IMG/VR virus record: IMGVR_UViG_2896607866_000004
Location: 1-40,991 of that record
Length of the DNA stretch: 40,991 nucleotides
Source: a virus
Taxonomy: Duplodnaviria; Heunggongvirae; Uroviricota; Caudoviricetes
Reading direction: 5' to 3' (one strand)
The position numbers and the translations under genes were made by a program. Below the pieces are notes generated by a model that was given only the letters and a program-made list of their open reading frames with translations, had not been told where the DNA came from and did not search any database. Shown piece by piece: positions 19,035-19,883 of this stretch (positions are counted from its first letter, which is position 1; the number at the start of each line of letters is the position of its first letter).

Positions 19035-19250
19035 ATGAAATCCATGGACAAAATTTCAACGGGCATTGCCTACGGCACCGCCGCCGGCAGTGCCGGCTAC
19101 TGGTTTTTGCAGTGGTTGGATCAGGTCAGTCCATCACAGTGGGCTGCGATTGGTGTGCTGGGAAGTCTGCTTCTGGGGCTTCTGACTTATCTGACGAATC
19201 TGTATTTCAAAATAAGAGAAGACAAGCGTAAGGCTGCACGGGGAGAGTAA
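19035..19250 (+). CDS. S: class II holin, phage 21 S-type pinholin (71 aa) with dual-start motif
   Basis: [71 protein letters not shown] closely resembles S21 as recalled; Met1 and Met4 starts; GGAGG SD. Confidence 0.8.
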
Positions 19251-19253
19251 ATA

Positions 19254-19883
19254 ATGAAGCATGAAGAAATGAATCAGCGATTCAATCACCTGGAAAATGA
19301 AATCACTGAGCTTAATAAAAAATTGTCGGCGTTGGTGAGTTCTGAAGATGAAAACAAACGCCGCGATGAGCATTATGCGGCGATTTACGATTACTGCCAC
19401 AAAGTCGCTCACGAGACTTTTATGAAGTTTTTGCAGGAAAAGTTTTTACCGGCCGCATTGTCAGAAAAAGAGGCGGCTTACCTGCGGCCTGAGTACGTCA
19501 TTACGGTTAACAGTGCCGGAGAGGAAGAGCATAAAAGTGATTTTATTGCGTCTGCACCGGATAAAGACCAGGAACCCCGTCGGCCTTTCAGGGTTTCCTG
19601 TGAAGAGGGTGAGTTCGTCGTTTATGAGAACGGAAAACCTGTCCGGGCATCGCATCATCACTGCCTGAAAATTATTAATCTCGCTATCAGATGCCTGAAA
19701 GACGAAAACACCAGAGTTATGAAACGCATTGGCCGTTGCATGGGGTATTTGCAGGTGGCGGCAGAGATTGAAGCACTTGCCAGTGGTGCAGACATGGATG
19801 CTGCGGTGCGGGAGGCTCTTCTTCGTGATTTCAATACTCCCCCTTTAAGAAAGAGCCTGATGACTGGATCCAGCCGGGGCTGA
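19254..19883 (+). CDS. hypothetical protein (209 aa) between holin and endolysin
   Basis: ATG 3 nt after the holin stop; acidic, His/Cys-containing protein; no family recognised. Confidence 0.5.
   Translation: MKHEEMNQRFNHLENEITELNKKLSALVSSEDENKRRDEHYAAIYDYCHKVAHETFMKFLQEKFLPAALSEKEAAYLRPEYVITVNSAGEEEHKSDFIASAPDKDQEPRRPFRVSCEEGEFVVYENGKPVRASHHHCLKIINLAIRCLKDENTRVMKRIGRCMGYLQVAAEIEALASGADMDAAVREALLRDFNTPPLRKSLMTGSSRG

Follow-up and report, generated by a model that had tools for sequence, protein, structure and literature searches.

A C-module-only member of the long YdfR family, with a frameshifted tail, between the holin and endolysin genes of a defective lambdoid prophage

The subject of this report is a 209-amino-acid (209-aa) open reading frame (ORF) that occupies the slot between a phage-21-type holin gene and a truncated endolysin gene in a 40,991-nt stretch of Caudoviricetes DNA (IMG/VR record IMGVR_UViG_2896607866_000004, positions 1 to 40,991), which is hereafter called the window. 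The ORF is a member of the long YdfR family (phrog_1085) that consists of the C-terminal module alone, and the window copy has lost the most constrained part of that module, its tail, through a 1-nt deletion. It is well supported that the region forms the leading part of a late lysis cassette, and that the lambdoid prophage to which it belongs is defective and of the Shigella or enteroinvasive Escherichia coli type. The favoured explanation, a tentative one with somewhat less than an even chance, is that the family comprises non-essential cytoplasmic late accessory proteins that act via a host partner, and that the window copy is probably inactive. The features on which this account rests are as follows.

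19035-19250, plus strand: S21-type class II holin (pinholin), 71 aa, beginning MKSMDK; PF04971, E 1.2e-34
19240-19247, plus strand: Shine-Dalgarno-like GGGGAGAG, read from the sequence, inside the last holin codons and ending 6 nt before the ATG of the 209-aa ORF
19254-19883, plus strand: 209-aa ORF, C-module-only long YdfR family; phrog_1085, E 3.9e-74
19839-19843, plus strand: C5 homopolymer, site of a 1-nt deletion; intact genes need C6, and the frame shifts after Pro197
19844-19906, plus strand: out-of-frame conserved tail FKKEPDDWIQPGLTYLKRRI and stop codon, otherwise undamaged
19949-20172, plus strand: 5' fragment of a phage lysozyme of the signal-arrest-release (SAR) type, ~74 of 177 codons; PF00959, E 5.4e-07
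20170-21434, minus strand: IS600 (IS3 family), 99.9% identical over 1265 bp to copies annotated 'IS3-like element IS600 family transposase'

Identification of the slot gene

The 209-aa ORF begins directly behind the holin gene, as an earlier note on this DNA had described: the holin stop codon TAA occupies positions 19248-19250 and the next ATG is located at 19254, which leaves a spacer of 3 nt. The position of the ORF would allow its translation together with the holin from the late transcript. In phage 21, the annotation assigns the equivalent of the GGGGAGAG site to the endolysin as its ribosome-binding site; this strong site at the end of the holin gene is used by the slot gene here and by the endolysin in phage 21. 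Three observations show that the ORF is a real gene and not a chance reading frame: homologs number 132 at E<=1e-3, RefSeq contains an identical protein (WP_001300760.1, annotated 'hypothetical protein'), and the ratio of nonsynonymous to synonymous substitution rates (dN/dS) is 0.36. A 100% match to the ORF is also present in a Shigella flexneri chromosome.

The earlier description of the product as an acidic protein of unknown family holds in part. The protein is only mildly acidic (pI 6.2, with 35 acidic versus 31 basic residues), so that the first term overstates its composition; its function is indeed unassigned, but its family is catalogued as phrog_1085. The slot gene product is identical to hypothetical proteins already catalogued, and the ordinary layout of holin, YdfR-family gene and lysozyme can be seen in the K-12 reference genome. 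Apart from the phrog_1085 match, the profile and structure searches that the note had proposed return nothing: there is no significant family in Pfam or NCBIfam, no PADLOC-DB defence family at E<=1, no hit below E 0.1 in a profile search of the PDB, and no fold match. The gene is uncharacterised, rather than the conserved, characterised lysis accessory gene of the phage family for which the note had allowed, and literature searches on lambdoid phages found no gene located between S and R that has been characterised. No transmembrane segment is found in the product, which is predicted with good support to be soluble and cytoplasmic.

Module architecture of the family

The match of the window ORF to phrog_1085 covers only profile positions 117-288 of 296. 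The K-12 protein YdfR (103 aa) covers positions 1-79, and the distant homolog P0125 covers positions 6-296. The partial match of the window ORF is explained by the composition of the family from two modules, in which K-12 YdfR represents the N-module alone, the window ORF the C-module alone, and the long forms both. The long homologs (260-333 aa) carry an N-terminal DUF1327 domain (PF07041, 'YdfR family') before a sequence that is up to 82% identical to the window ORF; this value is reached by residues ~125-320 of the 333-aa homolog P0004. DUF1327 is present in 21 of the 64 aligned relatives. In the 209-aa ORF, PF07041 gives no match even at E<=1, and a tblastn search of the window with the YdfR N-domain finds nothing.

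The full-length family protein consists of the N-terminal DUF1327 domain, a coiled coil with a variable linker, and a conserved C-terminal domain of ~110 residues, in which a beta-hairpin is followed by helices containing GRCMGYLQVAAEIE and by the tail PPFKKxPxxWxxPGLxYLKxRI. In the window ORF, the coiled coil spans residues 1-62, the variable linker residues 63-108 and the conserved domain residues 109-196, after which 13 out-of-frame residues follow. Forms that lack the N-module are numerous (185-222 aa), are themselves under purifying selection, and are recorded as 'hypothetical proteins' from E. coli prophages and Shiga toxin (Stx) phages. The intact forms of this kind (e.g., BCI50505.1, from Stx2_12E129) share with the window ORF its architecture, the start 3 nt after the holin stop and the downstream lysozyme type, but they keep the tail in the form ...PPFKKxPxxWxxPGLTYLKxRI, which the window allele has lost. 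Additionally, the coiled-coil segment (residues 4-62) is found in the slot genes of the PhiR12 phages H59-H62, which are annotated with DUF1327 and DUF1823. In its module content, the slot gene resembles a mosaic assembled from four or more interchangeable modules.

The N-module is the part of the family for which biochemical data exist. Two-hybrid and co-purification experiments show that residues 1-72 of YdfR bind the N-terminal (catalytic) half of RNase E, and RNA co-purifies; overproduction of YdfR causes no growth defect and leaves both growth and the transcriptome largely unaffected (PMC13232886). Because the binding maps to the N-module, which the window ORF lacks, RNase E binding is not transferable to the window ORF.

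The family is a small one of enterobacterial phages, since only 42 clusters are recovered when 1.84 billion representative proteins are searched exhaustively with the profile. A scan of species-representative genomes finds only three loci with the family and so adds no taxonomic breadth.

Constraint on the slot gene

Among 42 distinct relatives, the dN/dS of 0.36 for the slot gene compares with 0.09 for the holin gene and 0.07 for the lysozyme gene at similar dS. By region, dN/dS is 0.13 in the tail, 0.23 in the C-domain, 0.44 in the coiled coil and ~1.0 in the middle linker. The slot-gene family is under purifying selection, and the tail is its most constrained part.

The rapid evolution of the slot protein, which shows 46-64% identity versus ~90% for the lysozyme at equal dS, raises the improbable explanation that it is a late-expressed conflict gene, which would block superinfecting or competing phages or counteract a host defence triggered by the sensing of late phage proteins, and would evolve fast in an arms race. 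The higher dN/dS of the slot gene, the mosaic shuffling of modules and the hypervariable middle segment with its dN/dS near 1 are consistent with such a role, as is the position of the gene, because the region from Q to the lysis genes is a known site of accessory cargo and HicAB and ParDE pairs lie nearby in relatives. However, none of the PADLOC defence models matches, an enzymatic or sensor domain is not recognisable, and a promoter belonging to the gene itself is not evident, so that it would be silent in the lysogen, where exclusion genes usually act.

Frameshift and state of the window copy

The 209-aa frame itself results from a frameshift, as intact relatives are 217 aa in length. All intact relatives end in ...NTPPFKKEPDDWIQPGLTYLK(G/R)RI, and the window ORF ends in ...NTPPLRKSLMTGSSRG; ~20 residues of the conserved tail are lost and are replaced by 13 unrelated residues. 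The sequence FKKEPDDWIQPGLTYLKRRI, which is encoded out of frame behind the homopolymer, is the exact tail of P0004. The C5 tract is found in 12 of 12 copies of the window allele (11 IMG/VR loci and the window). Six complete E. coli genomes, whose lysis cassettes are annotated as intact, carry this allele, as do eleven IMG/VR contigs, the majority of which likewise have intact cassettes. Because otherwise intact cassettes carry the same allele, the frameshift is older than the insertion of IS600, and because the out-of-frame tail coding sequence is still intact, the lesion is recent.

A second lesion of this kind is observed in the IMG/VR contig L083, in which a long-form homolog (~1372-2151), 53% identical to the window ORF, has lost its tail by an independent 1-nt loss in the same Pro-Pro-Phe codons. 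This recurrence could reflect a mutational hot spot or repeated inactivation.

Programmed -1 frameshifting back into the tail was considered as a candidate, as the heptamer C_CCT_TTA (19841-19847, zero frame) fits the X_XXY_YYZ pattern. The candidate was rejected on two grounds: the RNA behind the heptamer shows no more structure than shuffled sequences do (z +0.6), and the heptamer is absent from the independently frameshifted L083. Since the RNA is not structured beyond the shuffled controls, the window lesion is treated as an ordinary mutation.

The window copy of the 209-aa ORF is probably inactive or weakened. Chances are evenly balanced that it is a decaying remnant without function, for which the family signal is irrelevant. 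The loss of the most constrained 20 residues, the absence of the N-module, the destruction of the lysozyme gene by IS600, the lack of spanin, terminase and portal genes, and the independent frameshift at the same site in the L083 lineage all point in this direction. However, the absence of the N-module alone does not indicate decay, given the numerous N-less forms under purifying selection; additionally, the lesion is recent and the same allele persists in otherwise intact cassettes. This explanation concerns the window copy only and is compatible with the favoured explanation of the family. Neither the frameshift loss of the tail nor the defectiveness of the prophage had been noticed in the earlier note.

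The slot between holin and endolysin in relatives

A comparison of lysis cassettes revises the view that an extra gene has been unusually inserted at this position. In lambdoid prophages of E. coli and Shigella, the slot is routinely filled by YdfR-family genes, as in the K-12 Qin prophage, in phage records and in all 80 IMG/VR loci that were retrieved with the family alignment; it is commonly occupied in relatives and empty in phage 21, so the window arrangement is not a one-off insertion. The K-12 Qin prophage has the order essQ-ydfR-rrrQ-rzpQ. In PhiR47_1 and mEp460, the holin gene is followed by a short YdfR-family gene (~104 aa) alone in the slot and then by the lysozyme gene, and in the Stx2a phage Stx2_12E129 a 213-aa homolog lies between holin and lysozyme. 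In the 80 IMG/VR loci, the homolog without exception begins 3-4 nt past the stop codon of an S21-type holin gene (73-100% identical), the slot protein is 46-100% identical to the window ORF, and a lysozyme 89-100% identical to that of the relative follows wherever the contig is long enough. The GenBank phage collection contains 436 records with an S21-type holin, of which 100 have a DUF1327 gene; 20 records match the window ORF, ~5 of them including its C-domain.

The slot gene is dispensable for lysis, because S21 directly abuts R21 in phage 21. In the window and in the relatives it lies on the same strand in the late operon, at or beside the lysis cassette. The distant full-length relatives are found downstream of Q and upstream of the holin gene, from which they are separated by other small genes; two of the three distant contexts pair with a different holin family, PF16080, and one with PF04971, with another gene in between. 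The spanin region of these contigs resembles that of Salmonella lambdoid phages. Since the distant relatives are located upstream of the holin and occur with another holin family, the family is stably associated with the lysis neighbourhood and the beginning of the late operon, and not with one holin-endolysin pair.

Other small genes are also observed in this neighbourhood. In L001 (3778-4092) and L005 (3308-3628), from Stx2 phage and E. coli ST130 relatives, an ORF of ~105 aa is annotated on the opposite strand, in the interval that separates the slot gene from the lysozyme gene; the window has no such ORF. HicAB separates Q from the family gene in distant relatives (L093 2780-3434; L095 3127-3781), and ParDE just past Rz in a close relative (L003 6088-6622). 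The lysis neighbourhood shows a gathering of accessory cargo.

The fixed position behind the holin gene in E. coli raises a serious rival explanation, in which the slot protein is a cytoplasmic regulator of lysis timing. Made together with the holin, it would bind either the charged, cytoplasmic C-terminal tail of S21 or the SAR lysozyme at its cytoplasmic N-terminus and so delay or sharpen pinhole triggering, in the manner of the unrelated soluble antiholin RIII of phage T4. The place of the gene after the holin stop and the ribosome-binding site embedded in the holin gene are kept in all 80 loci despite divergence to 46% identity, and the family is always within or just upstream of the lysis cassette, the distant relatives included. 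A deletion of ydfR is among the raw hits of a K-12 envelope-leakiness screen (PMC3879167 supplements), but polarity on rrrQ, the lysozyme gene that follows, could explain this hit equally well. Several observations make a regulator of this kind unlikely: lysis proceeds without a slot gene in phage 21 and in many further cassettes of the S21 type, other genes intervene between the family gene and the holin gene in the distant relatives, where the holin belongs to a different family in two of three contexts, overproduction of YdfR has no growth phenotype, and the occurrence of the modules as N-only, C-only and N+C forms is hard to reconcile with a single holin-binding function. Additionally, the searches for known antiholins and lysis regulators in Pfam, the PHROGs functional categories, NCBIfam, PDB sequences and fold libraries return no related match.

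Favoured explanation of the family

An accessory protein that acts via a host partner is favoured because the slot gene is dispensable, its product soluble, its modules separable, its evolution fast yet constrained, and its position relative to the holin variable. In E. coli and Shigella cassettes of the S-X-R order, the slot gene apparently has no promoter of its own, and the slot protein would be made together with the holin via the ribosome-binding site in the last holin codons. The protein would then bind a host partner in the cytoplasm rather than join the membrane lysis machinery. The N-module would bind the catalytic half of RNase E, and the C-module may be a second binding module, with the tail as its docking element. 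The window copy is carried in a prophage that is past lysing its host or making particles.

Several points weigh against this explanation. The mechanism of the family is inferred, with modest support, and the only module with biochemical data is missing from the window ORF. The invariant junction of 3-4 nt with the holin gene in 80 loci fits a protein that works with the holin equally well. The tailless allele predates the insertion of IS600 and is carried by intact cassettes, so the tailless form could keep some function. Additionally, structure gives no functional support, because the model of the window protein is poor and that of P0004 matches no known fold: the AlphaFold2 model of the window protein, built with 34 close homologs, has a predicted local distance difference test (pLDDT) score of 48 and is unusable, and a second model, of P0004 with 64 more diverse sequences, has a confident C-domain (pLDDT 73-90) for which Foldseek finds no match at E<=0.001 in BFVD or the PDB.

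A more specific proposal is distinctly unlikely, namely that the long YdfR family is an undescribed class of late effectors in which DUF1327 would bind RNase E, the constrained tail of a C-terminal domain that has no detectable fold relative would dock a second partner (a host factor or the pinholin), and the C-only forms would regulate late mRNA fate or pinholin triggering. If C-module-only forms did act on pinholin triggering, they would be the first cytoplasmic antiholin for a pinholin.

The two-module dissection, the constraint profile, the recognition of the frameshift and the distant relatives upstream of the holin are new from the present analysis. Among sequenced phages whose holin is of the phage 21 type, approximately one quarter carry a YdfR-family gene in the lysis cassette, and many Shiga-toxin phages belong to this quarter, and the modules, constraint and late-operon position of the family provide a defined basis for asking about lysis timing, toxin release and late RNA stability. 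The role of the family in lambdoid and Shiga-toxin lysis cassettes is a real and testable question, for which the window locus is a poor place of study; the window copy, a damaged allele in a dead prophage, adds little.

The truncated lysozyme, IS600 and the prophage

The SAR-type endolysin that the earlier note had described as truncated is indeed cut by IS600. The lysozyme ORF (19949-20188) continues into IS600 and reaches a stop codon at 20188, and only residues 1-75 are authentic lysozyme; over this stretch, identity to the lysozyme of the relative, which is intact at 177 aa, is 98.7%. The N-terminus YGLSAAVLALIAAGASAP, as read from the translation, is a weakly hydrophobic, Gly/Ala/Ser-rich SAR-like segment, and the motif E35-x8-D44-x5-T50 is present after it. 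A complete catalytic domain is absent from the window lysozyme because of the cut. In the interval before the lysozyme start at 19949 (window 19884-19948), the preceding 20 nt (...aaatcctgataaatatccATG) contain no recognisable Shine-Dalgarno sequence.

The IS600 element is complete; it carries two ORFs on the minus strand, 21067-21369 (100 aa) and 20213-21031 (272 aa), and has terminal inverted repeats TGAGGT.... A second IS600 copy at 7055-8317 is inverted relative to that at 20170-21434, and the two copies are 99.6% identical. The remaining main features of the prophage are as follows.

894-2180, minus strand: integrase
9230-9925, minus strand: CI-like repressor
Between the CI-like repressor and Q in window order: DnaB-like helicase
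17816-18232, plus strand: late antiterminator Q, which opens the late operon with the lysis genes; PF06530 Phage_antitermQ, E 2.5e-53
18432-18742, plus strand: tRNA cluster lying between Q and the holin gene, four genes (CAT, TCT-Arg, TGT-Thr, TCC-Gly); ARAGORN
21512-23068, plus strand: ORF for an N-terminally truncated head protein (capsid domain), directly right of IS600; PF25209 Phage_capsid_4, E 1.6e-54

The lysis region is followed in window order by tail genes and then by an ipaH effector gene. Positions 13052-20172 and 23758-40991 are 98-99% identical to a prophage of E. coli CFSAN029787, in which the same tRNA cluster is annotated; the counterpart of Q in the 98.6%-identical relative is annotated 'antiterminator Q family protein'. 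Colinearity stops at 20172, and positions 20173-23757 have no counterpart in the intact relative. The segment to the right of IS600 (21435-23757) is likewise absent from the intact relative, and a 3-bp target duplication is not evident.

No Rz/Rz1 (spanin), terminase or portal gene is found within the window. Together with the cut lysozyme, the absence of these genes means that the prophage is unable to lyse the cell enzymatically or to package DNA. The arrangement suggests that the remainder of the lysis cassette was lost, along with the terminase and portal genes, in a deletion or rearrangement associated with the IS element. An inversion between the two IS600 copies was considered as the cause of the truncation and is unsupported, the 3' part of the lysozyme gene and Rz being found nowhere in the window. 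Because the prophage is defective, the high late expression that the earlier note had expected for the slot gene would be of little biological consequence in the window strain.

An intact IpaH-type type III effector of 547 aa (LRR and NEL E3 ligase domain; 38038-39681, minus strand) is encoded at the tail-fibre end of the prophage; its equivalent in the E. coli CFSAN029787 relative, ipaHe, is annotated as frameshifted. The cargo gene ipaH is retained in the window prophage during the decay of phage functions.

Comparison with known systems

The assignment of the holin to the phage-21-type pinholins with a dual start, made in the earlier note from the sequence MKSM, is borne out: residues 5-67 match positions 1-63 of 64 of the PF04971 profile ('Bacteriophage P21 holin S'), and 67 of 71 residues (94%), Met1-Lys2-Ser3-Met4 included, are identical to S21 of phage 21. 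The holin thus belongs to a family that is already known, and its biology is of the textbook kind. Met1 at 19035 would give a 71-aa antiholin form and Met4 at 19044 a 68-aa holin form; the sequence MKSMDK at 19035-19052 is the same as in phage 21, whose two products are annotated as S21-71 antiholin and S21-68 pinholin, and the window holin would be expected to use both starts as in phage 21. By the same resemblance, it would form small pinholes, depolarise the membrane and release a SAR endolysin. As with the window holin gene, S21 is located downstream of Q and tRNA genes and has a ribosome-binding motif in its last codons. However, the SAR endolysin R21 begins at the holin stop in phage 21, whereas another gene is found there in the window, and the window lysozyme belongs to a different 177-aa type that is only 33% identical to R21.

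K-12 YdfR occupies the same kind of slot as the window ORF, between an S21-type holin and the same lysozyme type, and both proteins match phrog_1085; nevertheless, they have zero homologous residues in common.

RIII of phage T4 is a soluble cytoplasmic antiholin. As a small soluble phage protein that modulates a holin from the cytoplasmic side, it offers the window ORF a functional analogy only: it has no detected sequence or fold similarity to the slot protein and, unlike the slot gene, is not encoded beside its holin.

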